DNA of 64,000 bases. Source: an uncultured delta proteobacterium (GTDB lineage: Bacteria; Desulfobacterota; BSN033; UBA1163). Both the position numbers and the translations under genes were made by a program. Position 1 is the stretch's first letter. Each line of letters starts with the position of its first letter. The stretch is from assembly GCA_963708295.1 (NCBI GenBank), contig CAVPSJ010000014.1, positions 64,001 to 128,000 of the forward strand, in the 5' to 3' direction. A model generated the notes under the pieces. The model was not told the DNA's origin, made no database searches, and saw only the letters and a program-made list of their open reading frames with translations. Positions 45,787 through 63,560 of this stretch are shown here, one piece after another.

Positions 45787-45798
45787 GTTCTTCTCCTT

Positions 45799-46506: not shown

Positions 46507-47263
46507 GGGAGACCTCCTCAAACCTCTTCGAGTACCTCTCCCCCAGGTAGGCAGCGATCACCTGCCGGTTTTCCGTGATCTCCTCGGGAGTGCCCTCGGC
46601 TATTTTCTGGCCGTGATGAAGGACAATGATCCTGTTCGAGATTCCCATGATGGCCTTCATCACGTGTTCGATGACCATGATCGTTGTTCCTCCCCGGTTC
46701 ACCTCCTGGATCACCGCCATGATATCCTCTATCTCACGGGGAGTCAATCCGGCCATCACTTCATCCAGGAGGAGGATCTCCGGATCCTGGGTCAAAGCGC
46801 GGGCCAGCTCGAGCCTTTTCCTTTCAGAGACGTTCAGCTTCTCTACGAGGACATTCTCTTTGCCCTTCAGGGCCACCTTCCGGATCGTCTCTCCGGCCTT
46901 TTCCATGGCCCTCGACATCTTCTTCTCAGGCTTCTTGCCGAAGAGGGCACCGATCGCGACATTTTCCAGGGCCGTCATCCCGGGAAAGGGCTTGACGATC
47001 TGGAAGGTTCTCGATATCCCGAGCTCGGCGATCCGAAAGGGCTTGAGACCGGTAATCTCTTTCTCTTTGAAAAAAATCTTTCCGTGGGTGATCGGAAGAG
47101 TCCCGTTGATTACGGAAAGAAGCGTCGTCTTGCCGGCGCCGTTGGGACCAATGATGCCCAGGATCTCGCCGCGGTGGAGCTCAAAATTGACGTCATCCAA
47201 AGCCCTCAGGGCACCGAAATACTTTGAGACGTTCGCTCCTGTCAGGATCGATTCCGGGGTCAT
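46493..47263 (-). CDS. livG: HAAT ABC ATPase (LivG-like)
   Basis: GPNGAGKT; RTFQ; LDEVMAGL; IEH. Confidence 0.9.
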   Translation of the reverse strand: MTPESILTGANVSKYFGALRALDDVNFELHRGEILGIIGPNGAGKTTLLSVINGTLPITHGKIFFKEKEITGLKPFRIAELGISRTFQIVKPFPGMTALENVAIGALFGKKPEKKMSRAMEKAGETIRKVALKGKENVLVEKLNVSERKRLELARALTQDPEILLLDEVMAGLTPREIEDIMAVIQEVNRGGTTIMVIEHVMKAIMGISNRIIVLHHGQKIAEGTPEEITENRQVIAAYLGERYSKRFEEVSHAGD

Positions 47264-48231
47264 ACCTTCTCCTCACGGATGGTATCGAGGATCGTTTTGA
47301 GACGGAATCCCCTGCGGGCCATGTCGATCAGGCCGTTGGGGATGAAGAAGACGATCAGGATGACGATGATTCCGAGAATTCCCATGTGCAAGTTCAAAAA
47401 CCTGCTCCAGACGATCTCGGAGATTCCTTCGAAGATGAAGGCCCCGTAGAGGGGGCCCATGACCGTTCCCGCCCCTCCCAGAAGTAAGATGACAAAGAGC
47501 TTGACAACAATCATGACGTCGAACACCGTAGCGGGCTCGATAAACGTAAACCAGTAGGCATAGATCCCGCCGGCGATCGCCGTGAAAAGCCCACTGATCG
47601 CCCAGGCAATGATCTTATACAGGGTGGTGTTGATGCCCATGGTGTCCGCGGCCTCTTCGTTGGCCTTGATCGCCTTGAGCGCGTAGCCCAGCCGGTTCTT
47701 GGAAATGGTGTAGGTGGCGGCAAAGAAGATCAGGAGAAGGACAAACATGAGATAATAGAAGGATACGTTGACCTGCGCAGGTTTTCCTGCCATCTGTGGA
47801 AGTGTCAGCCCCATGGCTCCCCCACATAGGTCTGTGAGGTTGTCCATGATTTGGCGCACCGCTTCCGCTGCTCCCAGGGAAGCAAGAGCAAAGTAGTGTC
47901 CCTTGAGTCGAAGAAGGGGCATGCCGATCAGGATCGCCACGAGGATCCCTACTACGCCGGCGGCCATCATGGAAGGGAAAAAGGGAATCCCGGCCTTGAC
48001 CATCAGAATTCCAACCGTATATCCCCCCAGGCCGAAAAAGATCATATTCCCGAAGGAGGCATATCCTGTAAATCCTGCGATGATATTCAACCCCTGGGCC
48101 AGGATGGCATACAGGAAGATACCCGTCAGCAGCCGGATCCAGAACCCCGAGGCAATATAAGGAAAGAGGGCGCACGCCAGCAGGGCGATCAGGAGGATGA
48201 TTTTATATGCCTTACCCGGTAATTTGATCAT
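47260..48231 (-). CDS. livM: HAAT ABC permease (LivM-like)
   Basis: GFTGYASFG; LRLKGHYFA; NEEAA..MGIN; LGGAGT..GP. Confidence 0.9.
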   Translation of the reverse strand: MIKLPGKAYKIILLIALLACALFPYIASGFWIRLLTGIFLYAILAQGLNIIAGFTGYASFGNMIFFGLGGYTVGILMVKAGIPFFPSMMAAGVVGILVAILIGMPLLRLKGHYFALASLGAAEAVRQIMDNLTDLCGGAMGLTLPQMAGKPAQVNVSFYYLMFVLLLIFFAATYTISKNRLGYALKAIKANEEAADTMGINTTLYKIIAWAISGLFTAIAGGIYAYWFTFIEPATVFDVMIVVKLFVILLLGGAGTVMGPLYGAFIFEGISEIVWSRFLNLHMGILGIIVILIVFFIPNGLIDMARRGFRLKTILDTIREEKV

Positions 48232-48342
48232 CTGTTGTAACCAGAATTCAGAAGAAACAATAAAGTGCTGCCGTGCTGCGGTACGGCTGTTCTGCGGCAC
48301 CGCCAGGACTGCAACACTGCGGGACGCCTCTCTATCTCGATA

Positions 48343-48423
48343 TTTTCTGCGTTCTGTTTACCGCCTACTGTCCACTGTTTACTACTTACGGATCACTGTG
48401 CTGATAACTGATTACTGACTCTA
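48343..48423. repeat. Degenerate heptamer short tandem repeat (TACTGAC-like)
   Basis: ttctgcg ttctgtt taccgcc tactgtc cactgtt tactact ... aactgat tactgac. Confidence 0.55.
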
Positions 48424-48432
48424 ATCCTTCTC

Positions 48433-49293
48433 CTAATAGAACCGCTTCCCGATGATTCCCTGGGGCCTGAAGATCAGAACGATGACGAGCACGATAAATC
48501 CGAACGCCTCCTGGTATGCGGCAGAGAAGAAGAAACTACCGACCTGCTCAGCCAATCCCAGGGCCATTCCTCCGGCCAGAGAGCCCATGGTGCCTCCAAG
48601 ACCGCCGAGGATGGCTACCACGAAGGCCTTACCGACCAGAGGACCTCCGATAAATGGGTTAATGGTCATAATGGGCGAAATCAAGGCGCCTGCTGCTCCT
48701 CCCAGGGCGGCGCTGATTCCCATCGTCCGGGCATAGATTTCAGCGACATCGACCCCTACGGTTTTCGCTCCCTCCAGATTGAGAGCTGTTGCGCTGATTG
48801 CTTTACCCGTCTTTGTTTTCACCATCAGAAGATAAAAAAGAGAGGTAAGAATTAAGGCGACGATGAATATGGCACACCGGATGTAAGGAAGAACCAGGCC
48901 TCCTAATTCGATTCCCTCGCCCGAGTAACTCGGCGCCACCGATTTGAAATCGGCGGTCCAGATCAGAAGGGCCACGTTGGCAATTAATATCTGGAGTCCG
49001 AAGGTAAAAGTGAGTGTGATGAAGATGCTGGCTCGAATGATGTAGTTCAAAAGATACTTCTGCGAGGCATACCCGATAAAATAGAGGGCGATCATGGAAA
49101 CAGGAAGGGTCAAGAAAGGGTCGATCTTCAAATAAGTAAAGAGCGTGTAAGTGATGTAGGCGCCCAGCATAATGAAGGATCCGTGGGCCAGGTTAATAAT
49201 ATTCATCACCCCCCAGACAAGCGAGAATCCCATGCCGATGCAGACATAGACAGCGCCGAAAAGAATGCCGTTGAGGATCGCTTGGAGGATCAT
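48433..49293 (-). CDS. livH: HAAT ABC permease (LivH-like)
   Basis: GFSLVWGVMNIINLAHG; LGGLG; RPQGI. Confidence 0.9.
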   Translation of the reverse strand: MILQAILNGILFGAVYVCIGMGFSLVWGVMNIINLAHGSFIMLGAYITYTLFTYLKIDPFLTLPVSMIALYFIGYASQKYLLNYIIRASIFITLTFTFGLQILIANVALLIWTADFKSVAPSYSGEGIELGGLVLPYIRCAIFIVALILTSLFYLLMVKTKTGKAISATALNLEGAKTVGVDVAEIYARTMGISAALGGAAGALISPIMTINPFIGGPLVGKAFVVAILGGLGGTMGSLAGGMALGLAEQVGSFFFSAAYQEAFGFIVLVIVLIFRPQGIIGKRFY

Positions 49294-49584
49294 CTTCTTA
49301 AACTCTTATGTGTCGTGTCGGAGAAAAGCTGCAACGGGGTTGTCTTATCGTTCGACGACTTATATTCCCATCACACTTTCGCTCCGAGGGGCGTCATGTG
49401 TTTACTTTCACATGTCAGACACTACAGGCGTTTATATATTGTTATTGAATTCTTGTCAATTCTTCTTTTTTCCCCGTAGGTTGTCACTCTAAGAATAGAA
49501 GATCACGAAGGTTTTAGCCTGGGAAAAAGAAACGCGTTGGCATCAGGTGAATTTCCTATGTCAAATTGAAGTGCATCCGGGGCA

Positions 49585-50940
49585 TCAACCTTCGACAGGT
49601 TTGATCTTCGTCGGCAAGAACTTTCCCCCCCCGGGCTTCGCCTTCATCTCTCCATCTTCGATGAGGATCCTGCCTCTCTGCATGGTGAGAATAGGCATTC
49701 CCAAACACCTCCTGCCTTCATAGAGCGTATAGGGAGCCCTGGAATGCTGGGTCTGATGTTGAATCGTGTGAACCCGATTCGGATCGAAAAGAATCAGATC
49801 CGCATCCGATCCTTTTTGAATCACTCCCTTTTTTGGGTAGAAGCCGAAGATTTTGGCCGGATTCTCAGAAAAGAGCCGGGCCAATTTGCACACTTCAATC
49901 CTCCCGGTATTGACTCCTTCATCGTAGGTGATGGTCAACATCGTTTCTGCCTGGGGAGATCCATAAGCAGCCTCAAAGAAAGGATCGTCTATTTTCTTGA
50001 CCTTCGGAGCATGGTCACTCGCAATCGTATCGACCGTCCCTTTTTGGATCGCCTTCCAAAGGGTGAGACGGTCTGCTTCCGTTCGCAGAGGAGGACCAAT
50101 CTTCGCCAGGGGGCCTAACCGTAAAAGGGCTTCATTGGTCAAAGTGAGGTATTGGGGACAGGTTTCGACGTAGACCGTTCGTCCTTCTTCTTTCGCCCGT
50201 TCAAGGGGAGCCACGCCCTTAGCTGTGCTCAGGTGAACGATGTAGAGTGGACAACGGGTGATGGCTGAAATCGACAAGGCCCGAAAGATGGCCTCTGCTT
50301 CGAGAAGATCCGGCCTCGTTTTCAGAAAAACTTCTTTTTGGTCTTCCCCTTTCTTCAGGGATCGGTCTTCAAGATAATCCGTGGCCAGGCCGTTTTCTGC
50401 ATGGACCATCGCCAGCCCGCCGCACCCGGCAATCCGGTCCATCGCAGCCGTCAGGTGGTAGTCATCCGTCATCCATTTGAGCTTAGCGTAGGTCATAAAC
50501 ATCTTGAAGGAAGCGACTCCCAGATCAACCACCCTGGGAATTTCCTCAGTCTGAGAAGATGGATCGAACATGGCTCCATGGATTCCAAAGTCGAGAAAGG
50601 AGCTGTGAGAACCCTCTTCCAGGTACTTTTTAACCGTGTCCATCAGTTTCATCCCGGGCTTGGCATAGGCAAAATGGATGAGGGTGGTCGTTCCCCCATA
50701 GGCGGCGGCGAACGACAGGTCTTTCATATTGTCCTCGTAGACCGGATGGACATGTGCGTCGATCACCCCGGGCATCACATATTTTCCCGTAGCATCAATT
50801 ACCCGGCCCGCTTCCTGCGGGGGAATTTGGGGCTCAACGGCATGGATCTGTTCTCCTATAACCCCCACATCCGCCTTTCGGATTCCGGAACCTCCGACGA
50901 CAAGGCCCCCACTGATCAAGAGATCATATTTGTTTGTCAT
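49585..50940 (-). CDS. Cyclic amidohydrolase (dihydropyrimidinase/hydantoinase/allantoinase family)
   Basis: PGVIDAHVH, GGTTT, FKMFMTY, HAEN, HLST, ETCPQYL, SDHAP. Confidence 0.9.
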   Translation of the reverse strand: MTNKYDLLISGGLVVGGSGIRKADVGVIGEQIHAVEPQIPPQEAGRVIDATGKYVMPGVIDAHVHPVYEDNMKDLSFAAAYGGTTTLIHFAYAKPGMKLMDTVKKYLEEGSHSSFLDFGIHGAMFDPSSQTEEIPRVVDLGVASFKMFMTYAKLKWMTDDYHLTAAMDRIAGCGGLAMVHAENGLATDYLEDRSLKKGEDQKEVFLKTRPDLLEAEAIFRALSISAITRCPLYIVHLSTAKGVAPLERAKEEGRTVYVETCPQYLTLTNEALLRLGPLAKIGPPLRTEADRLTLWKAIQKGTVDTIASDHAPKVKKIDDPFFEAAYGSPQAETMLTITYDEGVNTGRIEVCKLARLFSENPAKIFGFYPKKGVIQKGSDADLILFDPNRVHTIQHQTQHSRAPYTLYEGRRCLGMPILTMQRGRILIEDGEMKAKPGGGKFLPTKIKPVEG

Positions 50941-51015
50941 GGTTTCCCCCGAGCTTAAATAGGATTGGAATTGAATTCTATCATAGATTGGAAAGGATTT
51001 GAACCGAAAGACATG

Positions 51016-51867
51016 CTACAGGAGGGTCAGGATCATCTCCCTCAGGACGACGGCCGCGGTCACAGATGAGATTCCGGTGGGGTCATAATCCGGAGTCAGT
51101 TCCACCACGTCAAACCCGACGACGCGAAGGGACTGAAGCTCTTTGAGGATGGAGAGAAATGCTTGAAAGGTAAAGCCTCCAGGCTCCGGGGTTCCAACGC
51201 CCGGGAGAAGGCCAGGATCGATCACGTCGAGATCAAGGGTGACGTAGATAGGGATGTTTTTGAGGCGCTTGACCATTCCTTTCAGGGAGCGCGGGTCGTT
51301 TGGCACGATCGACTTCCACTTTCCTGCCAATTTGAATTCATCCTCAGTCCCGGACCGAATCCCAATCTGAAATAATCTTCCCTCGCCCAGATGATCGACG
51401 ACCTTTCTCATCACCGTACTGTGGGAAAGGGCTTCGCCGAGATAATCTTCTCTTAGATCCGTATGGGCGTCGATGTGAACGAGATGGAGATCGGGATACC
51501 TCACGGAAAGTTGCTCCACGATCGGAAGAGTGATCAGATGGTCCCCCCCGAGCAGAATGGGGAATTTCTCTCGGGAGAGGATCCGGTCAAGGGCTTTCCG
51601 GATCAGGCCCAAAGACAGCTTTTTCTCTCCCAAGGGGAGTTCGAGGTCTCCCATGTCGTGGATTGAAGACCGGGTCAAGTCTCTCTGGAAATAGGGACTG
51701 AACGTTTCGATTCCCCAGGATGCCCTCCGGATCGCAGAGGGCCCGAAACGGGCGCCCGGGCGGAAGGAGGCCGACCCATCATAAGGGCATCCGAGGATAA
51801 CTCCGCGGCTTTCTTCAAAAGAGGCGTTCGCGGAGATGTAACGGGTTTCTACAAAAGGGAGTTTCAT
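51016..51867 (-). CDS. speB: Agmatinase
   Basis: GARFGP, GGDH, DAHTD, DLDVIDP..PGVGTPEPGG. Confidence 0.92.
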   Translation of the reverse strand: MKLPFVETRYISANASFEESRGVILGCPYDGSASFRPGARFGPSAIRRASWGIETFSPYFQRDLTRSSIHDMGDLELPLGEKKLSLGLIRKALDRILSREKFPILLGGDHLITLPIVEQLSVRYPDLHLVHIDAHTDLREDYLGEALSHSTVMRKVVDHLGEGRLFQIGIRSGTEDEFKLAGKWKSIVPNDPRSLKGMVKRLKNIPIYVTLDLDVIDPGLLPGVGTPEPGGFTFQAFLSILKELQSLRVVGFDVVELTPDYDPTGISSVTAAVVLREMILTLL

Positions 51868-52040
51868 TGATCCATTCCTTGTTCGAACTCGGCAGCGGGA
51901 TAGTCCCGGGATGAATCTCTTGTGCAGTCTTGAGTGTTGGATTCCAATGATAAGGAGTCGCTTGAGAGCGGAATGCGTTTTTAATTCTTAAGGGAAGGCC
52001 AGTCTTTTCGTCGATTTGCTCGGCGAGCCGAAGGCCCATC

Positions 52041-52523
52041 TCACCCGGTTTCCTCCCTGTCCCACAACACGACAGCCGCCAGAGTGGCACCGACCTTCTG
52101 GACCTTGTGCTCGACCGCCATGGATTTAAGATCTTTGATCTCCCGTTTCCGCAGCTTCATCCCCTCCAGGGCCATTTGTCGAACCATTTCCTCAATCTCC
52201 GCTTTCGACCCCCGACCGGAATATTCCATGATCAATCCCGCATATTGCGGTTCTTTTGGAAGGGCAACGGCCACGGCAGACGAGATCATCTGGCCGGGAA
52301 CGTCGCTGGTGATGGATGCATAGGCCGTCGGGACCAGGGAACCCGGGGGAAGGGGAACAGGAGAGATCAGCTGGCACCGGGGCGGCACAATGCTGCTCAT
52401 CTTCACGATGTTGGTATCCCCGATCCCAGCGCGGAGGAGGGCTCCGTCAAAGGCATTGAGGGAGGTGAACCCCTCCGACGCTCCAGAAACCAGAAAATAA
52501 TGTGTTGGGGTTTTAATGATCAC
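52041..52523 (-). CDS. pdaD: Pyruvoyl-dependent arginine decarboxylase
   Basis: [23 protein letters not shown] self-cleavage site; G.IME; upstream of speB. Confidence 0.88.
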
Positions 52524-52588
52524 GGCTCGTCTCCATCATCTCTCTTGATAGTCTCAAATCACACGTGATTGGGTGCGCTATGCCATCT

Positions 52589-53125
52589 TTAGAAGGACGG
52601 GGGTGAGCCGATCCATAGTATCACCGCCTCCTTCGAGCTGCTGTTATGGAGCCAGTGCTCCTTCTCTGCTGAAAGGTAAAAGCATTCCCCCTTCCTCAGC
52701 CTCAGAGTTTCTCTCCCAAAACGAAGGTTGAACCTTCCCCGGAGGACAAAACCGAATTCCTCCCCTTCATGGGGCTTCTCTTTCGGCGTCGACTCCCCTT
52801 TCCGGAGGGTCAGGAGAATGGGCTCCAGCCGCCGATTCGTCGAACCCGGGACCAGAAGCTCGAACTTCTGGATCTTTTCTTTCTCGATGGCCACCCGATC
52901 TTTCTCCCGGTAGACAATCTTTTCCTCTGAGGTCTCCCGGAAGAAATCCGAGATGTTTTCGTCCAAGGCCTCCAGGATCTGGGTCAGGCTGTCCAGGGAG
53001 ATGGACGTCAAATCGCGCTCAATCTGGGAGATAAACCCCTTGGTCAGATTGGCCCGGTCGGCCAACTCCTCCTGGGTCAGGTTGCTCGATTGTCTCAAAT
53101 TCCGAATGCGTTCTCCGATCTTCAT
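52589..53125 (-). CDS. XRE HTH + cupin regulator (PuuR-like)
   Basis: LTQEELA.R..LTKGFISQIERD; HEGEEFGFVL.G. Confidence 0.92.
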   Translation of the reverse strand: MKIGERIRNLRQSSNLTQEELADRANLTKGFISQIERDLTSISLDSLTQILEALDENISDFFRETSEEKIVYREKDRVAIEKEKIQKFELLVPGSTNRRLEPILLTLRKGESTPKEKPHEGEEFGFVLRGRFNLRFGRETLRLRKGECFYLSAEKEHWLHNSSSKEAVILWIGSPPSF

Positions 53126-53145
53126 ACATCCTGTGAGAATAGTAA

Positions 53146-53209
53146 AAGAAGAAATTTGTTTAGTAATCTGTCAGACATTATAAGAAGAAATTAGTTTAGT
53201 AAAATAAAC
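53146..53209. promoter_or_regulatory. Direct repeat and palindrome operator upstream of XRE-cupin gene
   Basis: AAGAAGAAATT(T/A)GTTTAGTAA at 53146 and 53182; GTTTA-gtaaaa-TAAAC. Confidence 0.6.
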
Positions 53210-53389
53210 TTGAAGGAATTATAACGCCCTCTTCCGGTTTGTCAAGTATTTTTTTTGACCGATCGGAGGGAGCCCGGAGATCTCTGATGGCACCGATCAG
53301 GATTGTGTCAGTCAAAGAGCCATGTTATCATTTTTTAGGATGCCATCAGGTCTTTTTGGAATCATGTCGTGCCTGCGGGATAGGAAACC

Positions 53390-56352
53390 ATGAAACGGCG
53401 GAGCAAGCTGTCTGTCTACCTTTATATTCCGTTTTCGCTGATTTTCCTGTTAACGGTTTGGGATGTGGGGGCTGGCGAACGAGAGCCTCTCCCCGGCCAA
53501 GAGACACTTCGCCGTTGGGTGACCGAGATGAAGATCTCGCCACGGGGTCCCTTCCAACGCATCCGTTGGTTTTGTAAAGATGGAACCCTTCATCCGCCCA
53601 CGGAATATGCCTGCCGCGACAGGGGCGGCGGGGTGCAGCATGGGGAGTGGACCGAGCGCGTGGTTCTGCTCCGATCCAATGCCTATTTCATCGCCAATGT
53701 GTTTGCCGATGTTCGCCCGGAGATATTGCTGGCACAGCCGGACGCGGAGAACGTCATCAAACAGATGATTCTTGAGCAATACTTGATCCGTGCGGACGAC
53801 GGGTGGATATTGCGGCACGCCCGTTACTACCGCGGTGCCCTCCAGGACGAGGACGAGAGCAGAGGCGGCCAGGGACTTCTGCTCGCGATGGTGTCCAACC
53901 CCGCTTGGCAGGAGGCGCGTTTTCCCGTCCTTCGGGAAGCGGTCAGGTTTATCCCGCACGGTCGCTCCGGAGCTCCTGTCAGCGAAATGCGCCAGCTTTC
54001 CCGGGCGCTTGGGGAAGCCGATCCCGAATTCCAACCGCTGCGCACTAAAATCCATGTCAAACCCGAACTCGGCGATGCCGAGCGAGTGCGGCGCTATGGG
54101 ACGACGGCAGGGCAAAAAGGATCTGGCCGGCGATTATGAGAAGCTGGCCGTGTTAATCCAGAAGGTTTTTCAACCATCGGATGCCCGCACAGAAATCCTG
54201 GCCTTGAACAGAATCGTTTCATCCAAAGTCCTTTCCCAGGAAATTCGGGAAACAGGCGGTCGACTGGGCACCGATCGCGATCCTGCGACACGCTTCGAGG
54301 CGAGCTGCCGGATGCTGGCTTCTATACGCGGACAGCTGGGATCGGTCGGGGACAGGCGCGTGAGGCTGGCATTGCTCGACGCGAGCCTGACCCTGGAACA
54401 GGACCTGTTCCTAACCGGAACGATCCTGATGGATCGGCTCCCACGGGCCTCCCGCAAGGAAAGACTTGAATGGTTGAAAGCCTGCGCGAACGGCCTCTAC
54501 GGCATGGGCCTTATTTCCGGGCGTCAGCGCGAAAGTTTGCTCGACACCTTTCAGGGCATCTCCGGTCCATCCGTCCGATGGGACGATTACAGGGCGGGGT
54601 TGAACTATGCCGCCCGAGTTCCAGGCTGGGCGGACCAGAACCTGCGTTTCCACTTCACATCGGCCGTTGACACCTTGTTGGTGCTGGAGCCGCTCACCAG
54701 CACCTACCTTAGCGACCGGGTGCGCGGCAGCCTGTTGATCGTCTATTCCTCGGTCCTGGAAGGCCTGCTGGCCGATGCGAACCGCCAGTTTGGGATCGCC
54801 AACCGTATGATGGATCGGAGCAGTGGATGCAGGGCTCACCGCTTTGAATCCCGGGATTGCCCGTGGAGTGCTCAAAGTGGCCAAGGCCGGTGACGATCCG
54901 AAAACATTCTCTCGCGACGGGATCTATGTTCTGCCTGCAACGATGGAAGATCTCCCTTCCGTGAGGGGCATCCTCACGGCAGGAAAGGGGAACATGCTTT
55001 CCCACGTCCAACTTCTGGCGCGCCATCTGGGTATTCCCAACGTCGCCGTCGATCAGAGCCTCCTGCCGCAGGTTTCCGCCTTGGAGGGGCGCTCCGTGGT
55101 GCTGGCTGTAAGCCCTGGAGGAATCGTACAGATCGCTCCGGACGGTCCCGAATGGGACGCGGTTTTCGCCCTGGAATCCCCCCTGCAATCCCAAGGTGCG
55201 TCAGCCGTCATCCGGCCAACCCTGGAAAAGCTGGATCTAAGCAATCGGAACCTCGTTCCGCTGCGTGATCTGCGCGTCTCGGATTCGGGGCGCATCTGCG
55301 GCCCGAAGGCCGCGAACCTCGGGGAGCTTAAGCGACATTTCCCGGAAGCCGTCGCCGAGGGGCTTGTGATCCCCTTCGGAATTTTCCGTTCGTTGCTGGA
55401 CCTACCCGTCGAGCCGGGCGGCTTACCCATGTTCCAGTGGATGCAGCGACAGGATGCATTGATCAAACGCCTGGCTCCGGAGCCCGCAAAACAACAACAG
55501 GAGGTCGAGCGCTACCTGGATCGCATGCGGCGCTGGATCACGTCCGCCGACCCGGGGATTGAGTTTCGCGCCAAGCTCCGCGCGGCCATGGAGAAAACCT
55601 TCGGGCCTGACGGGAGCTACGGGGTTTTCGTGCGCAGCGATACAAACGTGGAGGACCTGCCGGGTTTCACCGGTGCAGGCCTCAATCTCACCGTTCCGAA
55701 TGTGGTCGGGTTTGATGGCGTGATGGAGGCAATCCTCCAGGTATGGGCGTCCCCATTTGAAGACCGGGCCTACCACTGGCGGCAGGCCTCCATGGATCGA
55801 CCGGAGCACGTTTATGTGTCCATTTTGCTCCTCAAGAGTGTTCCGGTCGAAAAGTCCGGAGTGATGGTCACCGCGGACGTGGAGAATGGGACCCCCGGAT
55901 GGCTTTCCGTTGCTGTCAGCGAGGGGTTCGGAGGGGCTGTTTCCGGACAAAGGGCCGAGGAGCTTCGGATCAACCCAAGAAATGGCCAGGTTCATTTGCT
56001 TGCCCATGCGACGGAACCCTTCAAACGGATCTTATCGCCCAAGGGAGGAGTGGTTTCGCTGCCGGCATCCGGCACCGAGGCGGTGTTGAGCAGGTCCGAT
56101 ATCACTCAGCTGATGGCGCTGGCTGGGGAGATCCCCCAGCGCTTCCCCTGGCTGAAGGATAAGGATGGCCGTCCGGTTCCAGCGGATGTGGAGTTCGGGT
56201 TCGCTCGCGGCCAGCTCTATTTATTTCAGATCCGGCCCTACCTGGAAAGCAGCAAGGCCAAACGGAATCGATACCTCTGGCATATGGATGAGGTTTTTCT
56301 ACGGAGTGATCAGAAGGATGTGGACCTTGGCCAAGTTCCAAGGGAGAGGTAG
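53390..56352 (+). CDS. Exported PEP-utilizer/dikinase-like protein (signal peptide, helical domain, phospho-His swivel, ATP-grasp); frameshifts near 54100 and 54820
   Basis: MKRRSKLSVYLYIPFSLIFLLTVWDVGA; GNMLSHVQLLARHLGIPN (His codon 55003); GPKAANLGEL; RSDTNVEDLPGFTGAG; DVEFG..FQIRP. Confidence 0.8.
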
Positions 56353-56355
56353 AGG

Positions 56356-57661
56356 ATGAGAGTCCTTGCAATGGGAATCCTCCTGTTTAGTCTTTCCTGC
56401 AGCGCTGCAGGCGCATGGGCCTATCCGTTGGACGGATACGCGGTGACCGGTATCCGGAGGCTCGAGGGATACAGGCTTGCTCAGGGAGGAACGGTTCGTG
56501 GGCCGCAACAACCCAGAGGGGCTATGCTCACCCTGGGTGACGTCGATCTGCGTCTTTCCCAACGGCAGGATCTCATCCTTCCGGCTTCCGACCCGGCCTT
56601 TGTCGCCCAATTGAAATCATACCTGGGAGAAGAAGCCGACCGCTACGGGGTCGCCGTGCTGGACCTTTCGGACATGGAACGCCCGCGATACGGCGAGCTC
56701 CACGGTGATTACCGTGCTAATCCAGGCAGCGTGGGAAAGCTGATGGTGGCCCTTGCTCTGTTTCAGGTTCTTGCCGACATTTACCCGAAGGACATTGAGG
56801 CGAGGATCTCTATTTTGCGCAACACCATGGTGGAGGCCAGTGATTTTATTTATACCGATGATCATCCGGTGCCATTCTGGGAACCCTCGAGCCCCGGGAT
56901 AAATTACCGGCCGCTCCGGGTCGGTGACCGGGCAAACGTATGGACCTATCTGGACTGGATGATGTCAGCCAGCTCCAATGCCGCGGCCAGCATGGTCATC
57001 CGAGAACTCATGCTGATGGCGAACTTCGGAAAAGAGTATCCCGTGGGAGCGAAAGAAGGGAATGATTTTTTCAGGGCAACTCCCAGGCACAAGCTGGCCG
57101 AGCTGCTCACGCGTTCTCTGGTGGAGCCGGTGGCGCGGAACGGACTGGACCCGGAGGGACTCCGGCAGGGATCCTTCTTCACTTCGAAGGCCAATCAGAT
57201 CGTCCCGGGGGTCACGAGCCGTGCGACGCCCCGCGACCTGCTGCGACTGCTTCTCAAACTGGAGCAGGGGAGAATCGTGGACGCGTTCTCCAGCCGGGAG
57301 ATGAAGCGCTTGATGTATATGACCCAGCGCCGCATCCGTTTCGCGTCATCCCCTGCGCTCAATGATGCCGCCGTCTATTTCAAATCAGGGTCTCTTTACC
57401 GCTGTCGACCCGAGCCCGGGTTTACGTGTCGCAAGTACGAAGGCAATGTGGAGAACATGATGAACTCCGTGGCGATCGTCGAATCGCCGGCAGGCAAGAT
57501 TCACGCTGCACTATCTGGTGGCTTTGATGTCCAATGTGCCCAGGAAGAACTCCGCGGTGGCGCATCAGACCTTTGCGACGCGTCTTCACCGTCTGATTTC
57601 ATCATTTCATCGGGAAAGCGATGGGAACGCCGTAGGGGATCGGGTAAGGAAGCCGAACTGA
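56356..57661 (+). CDS. Exported class A beta-lactamase/PBP-like serine hydrolase 1; frameshift near 57500
   Basis: Signal peptide ...AAGAWA; SVGK (SxxK), SSN, KSG; alternate-frame C-terminus HYLVALMSN...RLHRLI. Confidence 0.8.
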
Positions 57662-58555
57662 CGGGATGTTGGGCTCGGCGGGTTTTCCCGAGCGGCGCAC
57701 GAGGACGTCTAACTGCACGATCAGGTCGCTCAGCCACGTTCCGCCGTCCGGGCTCCTGGCTAAGGCCGCGGCAATGTAACGGTAGCCTTCATGTTCAATG
57801 ATGCCGCTGTCGGAGTGAAACTCTTTCCATGTGCCTGATTTTCTGAAGATACGCGCATCCGGGTGAGTTGCTTGGAGGCCCTTGACGAACTTATGATTGA
57901 TGGCCGGGTTGCCGAGAATCGCCTTCATCAAGCGGCTGAATCCCGGGGAGACCAGTCCTCCCGTCTCAAGCAAGTAGTAGAAACGGGCAACTTGCAAAGC
58001 GGTGGCGCCATGAGAAAGGTTGCGGAGGGGATCCCGTTTCCAGGCAGGCGACGCGCTATAGTCTTTACCAACCCACAGTCCGCCATTCTTGGCCGGATCG
58101 TAGAGACGGTAGCGGGGTGATTGGAGCAGGTTCGCGAGAAAGTCTTTCCCGACCCGCTGGAGAAGATGGGTCGCTGCCTCGTTCGAAGAGTAACGGATCA
58201 TTTGCTGGAGTTCATTCCACGTCTTGTCGTTGAGCTCCATCTCTCCCCGGAAGATCCGTTCAAAGGCTCCGAGGAGGATGGCGATCTTGGGAAGACTCGC
58301 AGCGTACATCATTTCGTTCGGATTGGCATAGGCCATCCGCGGAGAGGAAAGGTCCGTGATATCCATCAGGGCGACGGAAAGGCTCTTTTCGGCTACGGCC
58401 TTCTGCAAGCGGAGTGAGGTGAGACAGTCTTCAAGACCCTTCTGGAGCCCGGGATCGCAGACCTCCTCAGCGGAAGATCCCTGGACGGAGTAGGCCGAGA
58501 GGAAAACCAGGGAAAGGGCCAGGCCGCACATGAAAATCTTAATCACCCGTAGCAT
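57602..58555 (-). CDS. Exported class A beta-lactamase/PBP-like serine hydrolase 2
   Basis: Signal peptide MLRVIKIFMCGLALSLVFLSAYSVQG; AASLPK, IRYSSN, FRKSGT. Confidence 0.85.
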   Translation of the reverse strand: MLRVIKIFMCGLALSLVFLSAYSVQGSSAEEVCDPGLQKGLEDCLTSLRLQKAVAEKSLSVALMDITDLSSPRMAYANPNEMMYAASLPKIAILLGAFERIFRGEMELNDKTWNELQQMIRYSSNEAATHLLQRVGKDFLANLLQSPRYRLYDPAKNGGLWVGKDYSASPAWKRDPLRNLSHGATALQVARFYYLLETGGLVSPGFSRLMKAILGNPAINHKFVKGLQATHPDARIFRKSGTWKEFHSDSGIIEHEGYRYIAAALARSPDGGTWLSDLIVQLDVLVRRSGKPAEPNIPSVRLPYPIPYGVPIAFPMK

Positions 58556-58615
58556 AATGGGTATATATAAGGGGTAATGTGAGCGACTTTCAAGTGGAAA
58601 AGACAATTCGAGAGT

Positions 58616-59878
58616 TTGGTGAGCAGCTGTCAGGAGAAATACCCGGCTCTCCGTTCGCCCGGGATCCGGTCGGGTTTTTTGTTTTTCAATTTTTTTCTCA
58701 TGATCATGGCCTATTACCAGGTGAAGCCTGCCAGTCGCTCGCTCTTCATCGAATCCTTAAGCTCCAGCCGAATGCCTTACGTGTGGATTGCGAGCGCTCT
58801 CGCCATGGGTTTCTTTATTACCTGGTATCACCGTCTGGTGGAGCGTCACAGCCGGATGCATGTCGTCCTGGGTACCTGTCTGTCGGTTTCCGTTATCCTT
58901 CTGGCGTTTCGCCTTGCTTCCAATCAGCCCGGCCCAGTGCAATCTGTCCTGTTCTACGTCTTTGTGGATATCATGGGGGTGGTTCTTGTCGAGCAATTCT
59001 GGAGCCTGACCAACTCCATCTATACGACCTCAGAGGGGAAAACCTGGTTTGGCATCGTAGGGTCGGGGGGGCTCGTGGGCGGAGTTGCGGGTGGCTGGGC
59101 AGCAGCCTTGCTGATTGAGCACACCCCCATGAAGACCCCTGATCTTCTCGTGATTGCAGCCGGGATCATCCTGCTCATTTCTGTTTTGACATGGGCCATG
59201 GGCCGGATCGGTCTCTATTGCGAGGTTGAGCGGGCAAATCACAGGCTTCCGCCGACTCATGGCTGGCAGATCTTGAGCCAGAGCCGCTACCTTCTCCTGA
59301 TTGCTGCCCTTTTACTACTGGCCCAAATTGCCTCGCCCCTTGTGGAATACCAGTTCTTGAATACTGTGGAGAAAGTTTATACCGAGGTGGATGCTCGCAC
59401 GGCCTTCTTGTCGATGTTCTTCGGCACCATGGGATTGATTTCGATCGGGATCAACGTGGTGATCACGCCACTCGTGACCCGTTTCTTGGGGACCATCGCG
59501 GGTTTGCTCGTGCAGCCCGTCATGATGGGTCTTTGCTCATGGGGTTTTCTGCTCCACCCCACGCTTTTTTTCAGCGGCGCCACCAAGATCAGCGATCGCG
59601 CCCTCTCTTACTCCATCAACCGCGCCTCCAAGGAATTGCTTTATGTTCCTGTGGATCCGGTTCTCATTTACCAGGCCAAGGCCTGGATCGACATGTTCGG
59701 TTACCGCACGTTCAAAATCGTCGGGTCGGTTCTCATTCTCTTAATGACCCAATGGCTGCCCGTGACCATGAGCGTCAATGAGCTCAGCTGGTTTACCATC
59801 GTCATCTGCGGCCTTTGGGTGATGTTCGTGATGTTTCTGCGCCAGGAATATAAGGTGATTTATCAGAAAACCCAATGA
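58616..59878 (+). CDS. TLC/NTT-family (Npt1/Npt2-like) nucleotide exchange transporter
   Basis: AYYQVKP.SRSLF; FWS..NSIY..EGK..FG; YSINRASKELLYVP; YQAKAWID. Confidence 0.8.
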   Translation: MVSSCQEKYPALRSPGIRSGFLFFNFFLMIMAYYQVKPASRSLFIESLSSSRMPYVWIASALAMGFFITWYHRLVERHSRMHVVLGTCLSVSVILLAFRLASNQPGPVQSVLFYVFVDIMGVVLVEQFWSLTNSIYTTSEGKTWFGIVGSGGLVGGVAGGWAAALLIEHTPMKTPDLLVIAAGIILLISVLTWAMGRIGLYCEVERANHRLPPTHGWQILSQSRYLLLIAALLLLAQIASPLVEYQFLNTVEKVYTEVDARTAFLSMFFGTMGLISIGINVVITPLVTRFLGTIAGLLVQPVMMGLCSWGFLLHPTLFFSGATKISDRALSYSINRASKELLYVPVDPVLIYQAKAWIDMFGYRTFKIVGSVLILLMTQWLPVTMSVNELSWFTIVICGLWVMFVMFLRQEYKVIYQKTQ

Positions 59879-59916
59879 GGCGAGTGCCGACGTCCAGCTC
59901 TTCATCAAAGGTAAGA

Positions 59917-60275
59917 TCAGGCAGCTTTTTCCATTTTGATAGATTGGGATAAGAGATAGGTTATGAGGCGTTTAGACTCACACCTTCCTCCTCCGCTTTT
60001 CTGACCAATTCTCTGTGGAGGCCTTTTGGAACCCTGACATTAAACTGGCCGCTGAACCGGGTCTTAGGCTTGGGAAGAAGTATTCTATGTTTCTTCATTG
60101 TGTCCATTGTCAATCCCAAAGCTTCTTGACTATTTTTTACCGCTTCTTCAAGGCTATATCCTCCGGTGATAATGCCAGGAAAATCAGGAAACCTCACAGC
60201 CAAGTATCCAGACTCCCTATCTGGAATAATTTTTATCTCATAACCTAACCGTTCCTCTTTTTTATTCTTTCTCAT
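59917..60275 (-). CDS. hicB: HicB antitoxin; frameshift near 3' end
   Basis: FPDFPG.ITGG.S.EEA.KN..EAL; FSGQFNVRVPK.LHR.L...A..EGVSLN. Confidence 0.9.
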
Positions 60276-60278
60276 AGG

Positions 60279-60512
60279 TCAATCCTCCTCCAGGATTCTG
60301 ATCACATCTTTAACATCCAACCAATGGCAATGCTTACGCGCTCCATGAGGTTTGACGACTGTTAAAATCCTATTTCCCTTCTTATAGACAGGGTGGCTTC
60401 CCCTGATATTTACCCGTTTAAACCCTGCCCCGAAAATGACTCTCTCCAGCTCTTTAAATCTCACCCCTTTTGGGTTTTGCTTCATCCTGGAAAGGTCTTT
60501 TTCTATTCCCAT
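60279..60512 (-). CDS. hicA: HicA toxin
   Basis: NPKGVRFKEL...GF....RGSH; upstream of hicB. Confidence 0.85.
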   Translation of the reverse strand: MGIEKDLSRMKQNPKGVRFKELERVIFGAGFKRVNIRGSHPVYKKGNRILTVVKPHGARKHCHWLDVKDVIRILEED

Positions 60513-60668
60513 CTCGAAAACAGAATAACTGAATATAGTTACAAATTCAAGAAAAAATATCCCCCAGCGTCCAATGAATGTCAGTTACCGGCGAAATCAG
60601 TAAGAGTTAGGAACAGAAGGTGAAATCCGATATCTAGCGAGCCTCAAGCTGTTTCCGAAAGACTTATC

Positions 60669-61518
60669 TTACTCGTCTTTCCAGTTCCAATTCCTGCCGC
60701 CTTTGAAGACGCCTGCGTTCATTTCGTTGCTGATAAAGAGGTTGGCGTCCGGGAAGCGTTGGACCATGGCGTAATAGAAGCAGCCCTCGTCTTTGGTTTT
60801 GGCCATCTCCTCTTCCGTGGCGATCAGGTAATCTTTCGTAAAGCTGTACGAAGAGGAATCGAAAGGCATGCCCGGTTTCTGATGGCCGGGAATGATAACC
60901 TCCGCACCGATCTTTTCTAACCGCTCAATATCCCGTATCCATTGCTGACGTTCTTCCGCCGTAAGCTCGCAGGTAAAGGGGTGCGCCTGGTTAAACAGGA
61001 CGTCGCTGCCGTAGAGGGTTTTTATGGAAGGTATCCAGACCACCGAATTGTATTTCATGTCGCCCACGACTTCCGGAATAATCTCAATCCGCTGTCCTTC
61101 CAGCTCGATGGAGTTCTGGCTTAGAGACTCAATATTGACGGTTTTTCGGCATACATTGGTCGGCTCCGATAACTTTTTCCCAATGATCGAGTTTTCCAAA
61201 AAACTGACGATTGATGGTGCGGGCTACCGAAGCGAGCGCGGTGACCCGGGCGGACGGGAAAGCCTCCGCAATGACCCCCAGCCCGAAGTAATGGTCAGGA
61301 TGAGCATGAGTCACATAAATCGTTTCGAGATGTTTGCCGGTTTCCGCTATTTCCGCGATGACTCGATGGGCATTCGATAGTGTCCACTGGGCATCAATCA
61401 GAACGGCATTGGTTTTCCCCATCACGATGACGGAAGCAACTTCAAAACCTTTTTCATCGCTAAAGAAAACCTTGGTAGACAGCGAATTCGATCCGTGGTT
61501 GTTGATTCTAACTTCCAT
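60669..61518 (-). CDS. MBL-fold metallo-hydrolase; frameshift near 61140
   Basis: LIDAQ, THAHPDHYFG, SD, IPGH. Confidence 0.85.
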
Positions 61519-61536
61519 AGACTCACCTCCACTCAT

Positions 61537-61596
61537 AGGTTGCTGGAAAAATGACTATTTCTCAGGCTGCTCAAAAATGCCCGGATTGATGCAGGG
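61537..61596. mobile_element. MITE family A, truncated copy 3
   Basis: GGTTGCTGGAAAAATGACTATTTCTCAGGCTGCTCAAAAATGCC matches 6105-6150. Confidence 0.65.
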
Positions 61597-61597
61597 G

Positions 61598-61798
61598 TTA
61601 TGCAAGCTTTTTTTGTCTTTTAATGATTTCTGCCAGCGATCTCAATGCCTGATTTACAGAGTCGTGATCCGGGAAAATTTTGGCAACATCGGGCTCAATG
61701 ACTACAACATTTGTCCCCTCAGCATATCTTCTTGCATATTTCCCCCGGATGCCTTTGCTGAAATCATATTCTTCAAGCATGTCTGGATCTTTTGGCAT
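61598..61798 (-). CDS. BrnA-like antitoxin (orphan)
   Basis: DMLEEYDFSKG.RGKY....EPDVA..FPD..SVN.ALR. Confidence 0.75.
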   Translation of the reverse strand: MPKDPDMLEEYDFSKGIRGKYARRYAEGTNVVVIEPDVAKIFPDHDSVNQALRSLAEIIKRQKKLA

Positions 61799-61916
61799 TT
61801 TCTTTAAACATTCGATCTGAATCAAAGTCACGCCGACTTTTATTCTTGGCAAAGGACAGAGCTTCCTTTGCAGCATCCAACATATGCCGGATCCGAATCA
61901 GATCATCCCTGCGCAT
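61773..61916 (-). pseudogene. N-terminal fragment of HepT/DUF86 HEPN toxin
   Basis: MRRDDLIRIRHMLDAAKEALSFAKNKSR.DFDSDRM, then loses similarity; overlaps MNT stop. Confidence 0.7.
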
Positions 61917-62212
61917 ATTGAACCTCTGCAGAATCGAGCACCTGCTGTCTGAAATAGCGACTCAATTCTGCTGGCGTCCTCAAATCCACTTTCCTCTTAA
62001 GAATGCCTGAAAGCTCAATCTCCATTCCTGCCAAACGCAGCAGGCCAACAGTCTGACCTGATTCGAATTCCACAAGGACATCCACATCGCTGTCAGGACC
62101 AAAATCTTCCCGCAGAACAGAGCCAAAAAGAGAAAGTCTTACGGATATGATGTTTTCTGCAAAAAGCTTCGATTTTTTCCTTGGGGATCTCAAGCTTATT
62201 TTTTTCTCTCAT
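61903..62212 (-). CDS. Minimal nucleotidyltransferase (MntA-like antitoxin); frameshift near 62138
   Basis: LFGSVLREDF.PDSDVDVLVEF...KVDL. Confidence 0.88.
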
Positions 62213-62424
62213 TGTCTCCACCTTGATACGCTTCTAAGATAAAATTCCAATTTAATAATACACAAAGACAAGCATTTGCAATTCAACCAATGCATCCACG
62301 GCCAAAGATCAGAATGGAATTATGGTTATGTTCTTAGAACCCCCGACTCACAATATTTCTGCCAAGAGAACTAATATCTTCCCGCCAATGCCTCATTTAA
62401 TGACTTCACTCAGAAGCAGATGCA

Positions 62425-63560
62425 TCAGGATAATCTATTTTTATAATCCTGATAATTGAATTCTCTGATTAATCTAAATCCTGACTCTTCGATTCCATAT
62501 TCCGATGGAGGGATGGTTGACGCCGTTGAACATCGTGGTTTTGACGGTCGTGTAATGAATCATGTCATCAAATATGATTTTGTCGCCGGGTTTTAATTCT
62601 TTATCAAACGACCAATTCCCCATGTAGTCGCCTGCCAGACAGCTGATCCCTCCCATTCGGTAAGTGGGTTTTCCTGCCAGTTCATCGGTAGCGCCCAGAA
62701 TAAAAGGTTTATAAGGCATCTCAAGGCAATCGGGCATATGGCAGGTAAATGAGACGTCGAGAATCGCTGTTTTGATGCCGTTATTTTCAACAATATCCAA
62801 TATCGTAGAAACCAGGTAACCGGTTTGATAAGTAAAAGCGCTGCCGGGTTCCAAGATGACTTGAACACCGTAATTATTTTTGAAATCAGTTAAGAGTTTA
62901 ATCAGATGGTTTGTATCGTAGCCTTTCTTTGTGATCAGATGACCACCGCCCATGTTCACCCATTTTAGCTTAGGTAAGAACTTGCCAAATTTCTTTATGA
63001 AAACAGCCAACACCTTTTCGAGCGCAAAGGAATCGGCCTCAAACAATGTATGAAAATGAAGCCCTTCAACCTCCCGGGGTAGGGCATCGCCAAGCTGCTC
63101 GGCAGTGATGCCAAATCGGGAGCCGGGTTTGCAGGGATTATAGATGTCATGGGGTGAATCTGAAAACTCTGGGTTCACACGCAAGCCAATCGAAACACCT
63201 TTTTGCCTGGCGACCTTGGAATACTTTCGCAGTTGGTTTATGGAATTAAAGGAGATATGACTGCTGTATTTCAAAATGTCTGAGATCGTCTTTTCTTCAT
63301 AAGCGGGCGAATAGGTGTGCGCCTTGACTCCGAGTTCCTCAAATGCCAATCGCGCTTCGTTGAGTGAACTTGCCGAAGCGCCAAATCCGTATTCTTTAAA
63401 GATCGGGAAAACTCCCCAGTTCGCAGAAGGCTTTAAAGGCAACGAGAATATCAACCGCAGCGGCGTCTCTAACCTGTTTTATTAAACCGAGGTTATTTCG
63501 GAGCAGAAGCTCATCGATCACATAACACGGGGACGGGATTTTGTTGAAGTCAATGGACAT
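62425..63560 (-). CDS. nspC: Carboxynorspermidine decarboxylase; frameshifts near both ends
   Basis: PSPCYV; AFKAF; ASSLNEARL; GLRVNPE; HFHTL; NMGGGH; EPG; HMPD.LEMPY; YT.VKTTMFNG; FNYQDYKNRLS*. Confidence 0.93.

Follow-up and report, generated by a model that had tools for sequence, protein, structure and literature searches.

A conserved four-gene module linking a putatively exported histidine-swivel dikinase with two PBP-like serine enzymes and a TLC/NTT-family transporter in diderm bacteria

We describe a four-gene locus at positions 53390-59878 of a 64,000-nucleotide stretch of DNA (the window) from an uncultured delta proteobacterium (GenBank assembly GCA_963708295.1, contig CAVPSJ010000014.1, positions 64,001 to 128,000). 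The genes, confirmed by their open reading frames (ORFs) and by Pfam, lie where a preliminary description of this DNA had placed them. They encode a histidine-swivel dikinase (53390-56352, plus strand, 986 aa), two serine enzymes related to class A beta-lactamases and penicillin-binding proteins (PBPs), which we call bla1 (56356-57661, plus strand, about 430 aa) and bla2 (57602-58555, minus strand, 317 aa counted from Met-18 of its ORF), and a predicted inner-membrane transporter of the TLC/NTT family (58616-59878, plus strand, 420 aa). Because related loci in several phyla bring the same four families together, the arrangement is not a matter of chance; the module is real and is widely conserved among diderm bacteria. 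The best explanation that we can offer, at a rough probability of 0.45, is that the transporter would feed nucleotide to an exported dikinase and that the dikinase and the two PBP-like enzymes would act on a substrate in the cell envelope.

Within the locus, bla1 starts at 56356, 4 bp past the last base of the dikinase stop codon, bla2 is convergent with bla1 and overlaps its end, and the transporter gene is divergent from bla2 across a gap of 60 bp if bla2 begins at Met-18. This is the layout that had been reported previously, and the family assignments also held: the second and third genes match Pfam Beta-lactamase2 (PF13354, 43.1 bits for bla1 and 62 bits for bla2, cut-off 22) and the fourth matches Pfam TLC (PF03219, 62.5 bits, cut-off 21).

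To find relatives of the module we scanned species-level genomes with an alignment of 16 dikinase homologues. An earlier genome scan with a single 509-aa piece of the dikinase had found zero relatives, while the alignment found at least 583 stretches encoding them, of which 80 loci were returned. Going by their labels, these 80 loci span the Thermodesulfobacteriota, Gammaproteobacteria, other Pseudomonadota, Myxococcota, Nitrospirota, Verrucomicrobiota and Spirochaetales. When their 989 ORFs were clustered, the only families to recur widely were the dikinase (in 79 loci), bla1 (69), the TLC gene (50) and bla2 (49), and a fifth family followed with 10. No mobility, regulator, binding-protein or nucleotidase gene is conserved beside the module in these clusters. 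For the 49 loci with at least 5 kb of sequence downstream of the dikinase, bla1 is present in 45, the TLC gene in 41, bla2 in 38 and all three in 34, so that the synteny of the dikinase with the serine enzymes and the transporter is conserved. The order seen in the window (dikinase, bla1, convergent bla2, divergent TLC gene) is kept in 29 of the 41 loci that have all four families, and in the remaining 12 the genes stay together in a different order. In 36 of 58 loci a 4-nt overlap joins the end of the dikinase gene to the start of bla1, as is typical of translational coupling. Across phyla, each of the four proteins keeps an identity of 45-68%, and many of their residues do not vary. In five loci (L040, L051, L058, L073 and L086) the TLC gene beside the dikinase is just 22-24% identical to the usual type and lies mostly on the opposite strand; we read it as a likely second subtype, a replacement within the same transporter family. 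One contig labelled Nitrosopumilus sp., an archaeon (L057), bears a complete bacterial module and is probably misbinned.

As assembled, the window dikinase is spread over three ORFs (53390-54139, 53790-54893 and 54823-56352) related by successive +1 shifts. Read through in its three frames (53390-54100, 54102-54821 and 54823-56352), it comes to 237 + 240 + 509 = 986 codons; an intact homologue, P0001, is 986 aa long and is 94% identical to the window protein across the last 509 aa. The exported dikinase of about 987 aa given in the preliminary description thus stands as to its length, signal-peptide-like N-terminus, histidine motif and ATP-grasp domain, and does not stand as a single frame; indels had been flagged, but nothing was said of two of the four genes being broken as assembled.

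The last piece of the dikinase carries, in this order, a PEP-utilizers domain (the phospho-histidine swivel; PEP is phosphoenolpyruvate) and a C-terminal PPDK_N domain (the ATP-grasp nucleotide-binding domain, PF01326, 55297-56268). The PPDK_N match is clear: with a cut-off of 27, the window protein scores 99.5 bits and P0001 94.4. The swivel domain scores 22.9 bits on PF00391, just below the cut-off of 23.1, and some homologues bear a precomputed PF00391 label. Its phospho-histidine motif, GNMLSHVQLLAR, lies at 54988-55023, with the histidine codon at 55003-55005; this histidine, the one in GNxLSHVQLLAR, occurs without exception in 16 of 16 homologues and lines up with the histidine of TSH in the swivel domain of PEP synthase. 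Also invariant among the 16 are the stretches RSDTNVEDLPG, ADxEFGF and QIRP, ATP-grasp stretches shared with PEP synthase, and because these motifs are invariant the dikinase would be expected to need a nucleotide. The catalytic motifs are intact in the dikinase and in both serine enzymes.

Comparison with known enzymes sets limits on how far the dikinase can be named. Its profile matches PEP synthase 8a8e (E 1.4e-25) over the ATP-grasp part, with a weak match on the histidine domain, and the rifampin phosphotransferase (RPH) structure 5fbs (E 1.5e-18) over the ATP-grasp part. The NCBIfam models for PEP synthase (PEPS) give at most 97 bits against cut-offs of at least 598, all falling far under, and RPH models match the ATP-grasp part only (NF041857, 65.9 bits against 999; NF000283, 41.8 against 1700). 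A search for a PEP/pyruvate-binding C-terminal domain found no Pfam match at E<=1 in the full-length homologue, where the ATP-grasp domain ends the protein. On these comparisons, the protein is best classed as a member of the histidine-swivel dikinase superfamily that includes PEPS, pyruvate phosphate dikinase (PPDK), RPH and glucan, water dikinase (GWD), and as neither a PEPS or PPDK proper nor an RPH.

The N-terminal domain of about 450 aa (53477-54821), presumed to be the substrate-binding part, belongs to no Pfam family: residues 1-514 of the full-length homologue have no match at E<=1, including none to a carbohydrate-binding module (CBM). Its invariant residues are two Cys and many Arg, Trp, His, Asp and Glu. 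AlphaFold2 models (pLDDT 88.4 for 448 aa of the homologue at L007, and 92.4 for residues 30-237 of the window protein, 208 aa encoded at 53477-54100) depict it as a largely helical domain in which the Cys pair sits on a small beta element. Foldseek found nothing for these models in the PDB at E<=0.001, and a VIA fold search gave only helical-bundle matches (Z no higher than 5.5 with the 208-aa model and, over 85 residues, no higher than 11.1 with the 448-aa model), although such an absence of a significant match does not establish the fold as new. With no fold match, homology gives no guide to the substrate. When 1.84 billion representatives were searched with a profile of the domain, 775 matched at E<=1e-3. 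In the best 150 of these 775, the domain is always N-terminal in this dikinase family, with no other architecture, and the proteins are about 920-1050 residues long or shorter; we take the shorter ones as fragments. In the protein Atlas the only matches were clusters without a name, labelled in part as PEP-utilizers (0.85 and 0.76), which are probably the dikinase family itself.

Export was assessed with a home-made heuristic that looks for an uncharged hydrophobic stretch of 10 aa no more than 45 residues before the conserved mature start. By this measure a signal-peptide-like N-terminus is present in 76 of 77 dikinases, 55 of 61 bla1 and 42 of 49 bla2 proteins, as against 203 of 565 control ORFs, and the 77th dikinase homologue has its hydrophobic stretch further upstream. 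The signal peptide claimed previously for the window dikinase would thus be conserved across its homologues. In the window protein, residues 1-29 (53390-53476) start with a basic n-region, continue into a hydrophobic core free of charges and end in small residues ahead of the mature part; the homologues have basic starts, small residues before the mature part and, by eye, AxA-like ends. The Cys pairs that are invariant in the N-terminal domain of the 16 dikinase homologues and in 45 bla1 sequences are usual for exported proteins and hint indirectly at export.

The two serine enzymes have SxxK, SxN and KSG motifs that are invariant in 45 bla1 and 36 bla2 sequences; in the window these are SVGK (56728-56739), SSN (56971-56979) and KSG (57382-57390) in bla1, and SLPK (58286-58297), SSN (58181-58189) and KSG (57833-57841) in bla2. 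The two proteins are paralogues (hhalign probability 98.1), with bla1 having large insertions, of about 130 aa, plus an extra N-terminal segment. Sequence searches of the PDB found nothing for bla1, either as a single sequence or as a profile, nor for bla2 as a single sequence. The sole solved-structure relative of the pair was the PBP-A-type protein Tll2115, at E 0.005 in a profile search, and that match was also the best in our attempts to align them with a solved class A beta-lactamase, none of which gave a reliable alignment. From the Pfam matches and motifs, bla1 and bla2 are members of the class A beta-lactamase/PBP-A-like family. They share with PBP-A and the class A beta-lactamases (for example, Tll2115 of Thermosynechococcus) the Beta-lactamase2 match and the SxxK, SxN and K(S/T)G motifs, but they are very distant from any solved member, and the insertions of bla1 set it further apart.

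The transporter has about 11-12 hydrophobic segments, and 36 of 38 members of its family match Pfam TLC. The family profile matches solved NTTs nearly from end to end (9j3n, E 1.2e-28, positions 22-413 of 423; 9j3j, E 2.8e-22), and our reading of the alignment finds the signature stretches FW..N..K and KE..P.D...K..D..R, along with other charged ones, in both the transporter and the solved carriers. Pfam also gives a weak match to MFS_1. Taken together, these matches place the protein as a divergent member of the TLC/NTT family. To our knowledge, every characterised substrate of this family is a nucleotide. The transporter is like the Chlamydia and Rickettsia ATP/ADP translocases and plastid NTT1 in its TLC domain, its near-full-length profile match and its polytopic character, but unlike them it is short (420 aa against about 500), divergent and found in free-living bacteria, and the direction proposed for it here is ATP release. 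A 2017 survey describes NTTs in free-living bacteria as widespread and uncharacterised (PMC5381601); the passages of it used here are silent on export and the periplasm, and its supplementary trees may include the TLC clade considered here.

The association between dikinase and transporter also holds at the level of genomes. We give co-occurrence as counts, without statistics, because related genomes are not independent. Among 201 genomes of the order around G283, whose locus is labelled Desulfobacterium, 16 are dikinase-positive, and all 16 have a TLC match at our threshold of E<=1e-30, as the proposed pairing of the two would lead one to expect. Fourteen of these matches score at least 415 bits; the TLC genes of the remaining two genomes score 234-250 bits and adjoin the dikinase. 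Within this sample, scores of 415 bits or more were confined to dikinase-bearing genomes, the best among the other 185 being 330 bits. In a second sample, of 251 genomes of the window's phylum, the dikinase N-terminal domain and bla1 occur in the same two genomes only (G000 and G232), bla2-like genes in 5 and TLC-like genes in 30. We also looked elsewhere in the genome for loci taken to be without a TLC gene. A match was found for 10 of 10 (L060 and L085 among them already had one within the locus), and for 18 of 21 in a second set of genomes with no TLC gene at the locus. A particular TLC clade thus tracks the dikinase, and TLC relatives also exist apart from it.

The explanation outlined above is favored because an exported dikinase would need nucleotide outside the cytoplasm, and the sole conserved membrane protein of the module belongs to a family of nucleotide exchangers. 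The part that we infer, namely ATP export, a periplasmic location and phosphotransfer to a substrate, would run as follows. The transporter would send ATP out of the cytoplasm in return for periplasmic AMP or ADP, alone or together with phosphate. On the exported dikinase, the histidine would receive the beta-gamma pyrophosphate of ATP, AMP and phosphate would be released, and one phosphate would then go to an envelope substrate bound by the N-terminal domain, the same substrate on which the two PBP-like enzymes would work. As NTT exchange is independent of membrane potential (PMC1951785, in the part of that paper drawn on here), gradients could set its direction, which in a free-living cell would mean ATP moving out and AMP or ADP moving back. 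Our guess is that the substrate is peptidoglycan or another envelope polymer, because there are two PBP-like partners and the N-terminal domain has many invariant residues, among them Arg, Trp, His and acidic ones. One possible variant is phosphorylation of peptidoglycan; a bolder possibility is activation of a carboxylate, with the PBP-like enzymes forming bonds without the energy store of D-Ala-D-Ala. Put most generally, the module would be a dedicated periplasmic ATP supply line in several diderm phyla, in which an outward-working NTT, an exported dikinase and PBP-like enzymes carry out ATP-driven phosphorylation or activation in the envelope, a proposal that we consider tentative and somewhat short of even odds. 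The preliminary description had likewise proposed that the transporter exports ATP to drive a periplasmic dikinase; the signal-like N-termini, the synteny, the co-occurrence and the invariant motifs agree with its interpretation, while the ATP-export mechanism itself lies outside these results. The two sequence-level checks on which that description could have failed, a signal peptide across homologues (judged here by the heuristic) and synteny with the transporter and serine enzymes, both turned out in its favor.

A number of observations weigh against a nucleotide-fed exported dikinase. Localization, nucleotide transport and phosphotransfer are all predicted from sequence alone, and the export heuristic, besides being home-made, is positive for 36% of control ORFs. 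ATP in the periplasm could leak through porins or meet phosphatases. The N-terminal domain matches no solved fold, so that the identity of the substrate is a guess. TLC matches occur in 15 of the 185 dikinase-negative genomes of the order sample (the best at 330 bits, partial at a contig end, the others at no more than 207 bits), and in the phylum sample 28 of 249 dikinase-negative genomes have a TLC-family gene (E<=1e-10) and 3 of 249 a bla2-like gene. Conversely, 3 of the 21 dikinase-bearing metagenome-assembled genomes (MAGs) in the second set above have no TLC match, and these MAGs may be incomplete. Frameshifts are denser in the module (three in 4.3 kb) than in housekeeping genes (two in about 24 kb). 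The transporter is remote from characterised NTTs, scoring 45.4 bits against a cut-off of 387.2 on TIGR00769 and reaching only E 3e-7 against 9j3n in a single-sequence phmmer search. Finally, the characterised NTTs all come from parasites or organelles and import nucleotides, as stated in the text of the 2017 survey (PMC5381601), and PamNTT1 prefers ATP uptake against internal ADP, according to the portion of PMC1951785 used here.

As part of the same explanation, and with the same reserve, we consider the module in the window to be a horizontally acquired copy. A search of 14 further genomes of the same genus did not find it. In one genome of the genus (G013), the flanks corresponding to window positions 53257 and 62425 are only 74 bp apart and the site is empty, and in two others (G003 and G010) different DNA occupies the site; the module therefore sits in a variable spot. 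Besides the module, the stretch concerned, about 9.2 kb (53260-62425), contains a HicB antitoxin gene (59961-60275) and fragments with a metallo-beta-lactamase fold (60669-61536). G+C is 0.57-0.62 over 53500-58500, as compared with 0.47-0.56 upstream and 0.41-0.49 downstream. The best matches of all four genes are to the same Desulfobacterales-type loci (L007-L017), at 58-70% identity, and in a quick tree the window dikinase pairs with L007 (Shimodaira-Hasegawa-like approximate likelihood ratio support, SH-aLRT, of 99). On the dikinase tree, the phylum labels need 11 changes where the minimum is 5. No direct repeats were found flanking the module.

The alternative that survives best is that the module in this genome is a decaying, non-functional island and that its three frameshifts are real mutations. 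Two of these are single-base insertions in the dikinase, near 54101 and 54822. The third is a +1 frameshift in bla1 near 57499-57505; the homologues change frame after about 57498, and the true stop of bla1 is at 57659-57661 rather than 57801. The enrichment of frameshifts noted above, relative to seven long housekeeping genes, means that real decay of the island has to be considered; the absence of the module from all 14 other genomes of the genus would fit it, as would the position of the frameshifts, which lie outside long homopolymers, unlike the breaks in the two split housekeeping genes. Of the seven, rpoB, rpoC, dnaE, secA and mfd are in one frame, while uvrA and the essential ileS are split, both at short G-runs (G000:C14:131020-131110, just past the end of the window, and G000:C12:195150-195240, respectively). 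Because ileS is essential and yet is split, the assembly must carry indel errors. The island also has no stop codons or larger deletions, and its other two genes are intact.

Relatives 90-99% alike, in contigs of wetland metagenomes, bear directly on the two dikinase sites. At 54101/54102, every covering contig is without one letter (27 of 27 depth units in X1 and 7.8 of 7.8 in X2), and at 54822/54823 contigs from X2 and X4 bear an in-frame alternative. Both sites are codons that vary among strains, and the window sequence resembles a blend of two variants. At the bla1 site the evidence is thinner: 57282-57462 has no cover, 57463-57643 is sparsely covered, and no contig was seen to span the frameshift. 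Since ileS and uvrA are also split and close relatives are in frame, the frameshifts in the dikinase and bla1 are probably an assembly artefact, and we consider decay of the island unlikely, albeit worth keeping in view. An RNA run (X19) has nine contigs, 90-99% alike, across the dikinase, bla1 and bla2, a weak hint that the genes are transcribed in relatives. We also considered programmed frameshifting, and rejected it on the grounds that relatives are in frame at the same sites and that other broken copies are broken elsewhere. Two such copies were seen: a MAG copy (L006, G032:C186) has both its dikinase and its bla1 split at other places than in the window, and G477:C34 has a split dikinase and a TGA within its TLC gene.

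A second alternative grants the genes their linkage but denies that it runs through nucleotides: the TLC-like protein would carry the substrate, its precursor or the product, and the dikinase would draw its phosphoryl group from some other source or would have lost its chemistry. The low score on the NTP/NDP exchanger model (45 bits against 387) and the weak MFS_1 match leave room for this, as do the neighboring TLC genes that are only 22-24% identical to the usual type, and the text of the 2017 survey allows that free-living relatives of NTTs may have other roles (PMC5381601). We nevertheless find it improbable, as the profile matches solved ATP/ADP carriers over nearly its full length, with charged signatures in common, the ATP-grasp motifs of the dikinase are invariant, and the TLC substrates that have been characterised are all nucleotides, in general knowledge as in the text of that survey (PMC5381601).

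More doubtful is the possibility that the module is a resistance or detoxification island, in which a periplasmic, RPH-like phosphotransferase and two hydrolases of beta-lactamase fold would inactivate an incoming antibiotic or toxin ahead of its entry into the cytoplasm while the transporter supplies nucleotide. RPH does the same kind of chemistry, converting drug and ATP to phospho-drug, AMP and phosphate (PMC4844700, in the part consulted); it is likewise a three-part histidine-swivel phosphotransferase, and its ATP-grasp part matches that of the dikinase both in structure 5fbs and in the NCBIfam models. Both neighbors of the dikinase have the beta-lactamase fold with intact motifs, and the patchy distribution of the module (0 of 14 genomes in the genus, a variable spot, 11 changes against 5 on the tree) is what such an island might display. 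RPH, though, is cytoplasmic, with its domains in the order ATP-grasp, RIF-binding, histidine, and the N-terminal domain of the dikinase has no sequence match to solved RPH structures, in which only the ATP-grasp and histidine parts are matched. The RPH models reach just 42-66 bits against cut-offs of 999-1700, mobility and regulator genes are not conserved beside the module, and the identity of 45-68% across phyla, with many residues invariant, is high enough that a fixed endogenous substrate fits better than resistance. PADLOC gave zero matches for all four proteins, so that a known defence system is not indicated.

Comparably doubtful is a reversal of the flow, in which a nucleotide or other phosphorylated product would arise from the periplasmic enzymes, by synthesis or release, and the TLC protein would import it in the canonical direction (for example, the dikinase might run backwards on AMP with phosphate or pyrophosphate, together with a compound, phosphorylated or acyl-activated, that the serine enzymes provide, serving scavenging or energy conservation outside the cytoplasm). 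The import seen in all characterised NTTs (PMC5381601 and PMC1951785, in their parts used here), the general reversibility of PPDK-type reactions and a gene linkage compatible with either direction are outweighed here by a reversed water-dikinase reaction that is unfavorable in general, a high-energy periplasmic phosphoryl donor that is neither known nor encoded in the module, a dikinase without a PEP/pyruvate-binding domain in Pfam, and the lack of a conserved binding-protein or nucleotidase gene beside the module.

Returning to the explanation that we favor, an exported dikinase supplied by its own transporter, neither an exported dikinase nor this combination of four genes was found to be described in full-text searches of the literature, which agrees with the claim made in the preliminary description that no system of this composition was known. 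The parts of the module belong to known superfamilies. Among these, GWD has a substrate-binding N-terminal region, then a phospho-histidine domain, then a C-terminal PPDK_N domain, and its acceptor is a polymer. The window dikinase has the same domain order as GWD (alpha-glucan, water dikinase) and PWD (phosphoglucan, water dikinase) of plastids, and its acceptor may perhaps be a polymer too. GWD, however, works in the ATP-containing plastid stroma and these enzymes bind starch through CBM45 or CBM20, whereas the window dikinase has a predicted signal peptide and an N-terminal domain without a CBM, Pfam or fold match. PEP synthase and PPDK are the closest solved relatives by sequence, as seen with 8a8e, but in comparison with them the window dikinase is permuted, predicted to be exported and without the PEP/pyruvate-binding domain. 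In its logic the proposed system is reminiscent of peptidoglycan O-acetylation (Pat/Oat), where a membrane protein brings an activated donor and a periplasmic enzyme transfers the group to a polymer; the protein families and the chemistry are different, and we claim no homology.

In the standard view the periplasm contains no ATP, and the energy for building the envelope comes from the substrates themselves or from coupling across the membrane. If our reading is correct, an exported ATP-grasp dikinase with a nucleotide transporter of its own would be a direct exception, bringing nucleotide-dependent enzymology to a compartment held to lack ATP, and this would also be the first role assigned to an NTT in free-living bacteria. 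It would then provide a testable function for the widespread, uncharacterised NTT-type transporters of free-living bacteria (PMC5381601, in the survey's text). Two further features make the module of interest: the N-terminal domain of 450 aa is conserved, without a family or a recognized fold, and the two PBP-like partners point toward what may be new envelope chemistry.

Some minor features of the surrounding DNA may be recorded. A search of Rfam at E<=1 found nothing in 52500-60500, and neither promoter-like sites (4, against 2.9 in shuffled sequence) nor terminator-like sites (9, against 8.3) are enriched. Upstream of the dikinase is a helix-turn-helix cupin regulator gene (52589-53125), which we considered as a part of the module and rejected, as it belongs to the conserved flank in genomes without the module and is not conserved beside the module elsewhere. 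Upstream of this gene are two 24-nt direct repeats, 36 nt apart (in the region of 53143-53202 and 53218-53245), with a perfect minus-strand promoter (TTGACA-16-TATAAT) beside them. A piece of this repeat region, about 85-160 nt long, is found again in G000 ahead of uvrA, and most genomes of the genus have it at the corresponding position. At the other end of the island, the ORF at 61129-61536 contains only the N-terminal part of a metallo-beta-lactamase and overlaps an ORF at 60669-61199 that has no Pfam match; the gene at 60669-61536 is probably another one broken by a frameshift. It is followed, at about 61537-61586, by a repeat of about 50 nt with more than 15 copies across G000 and more in relatives within the genus, resembling a repetitive extragenic palindromic (REP) sequence or a miniature inverted-repeat transposable element (MITE). 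Upstream of the module, 44584-52523 is a polyamine and amino-acid block with genes for a branched-chain-type ABC transporter, an amidohydrolase, an agmatinase-family protein and a pyruvoyl-dependent arginine decarboxylase; it is part of the conserved flank and is unrelated to the module.

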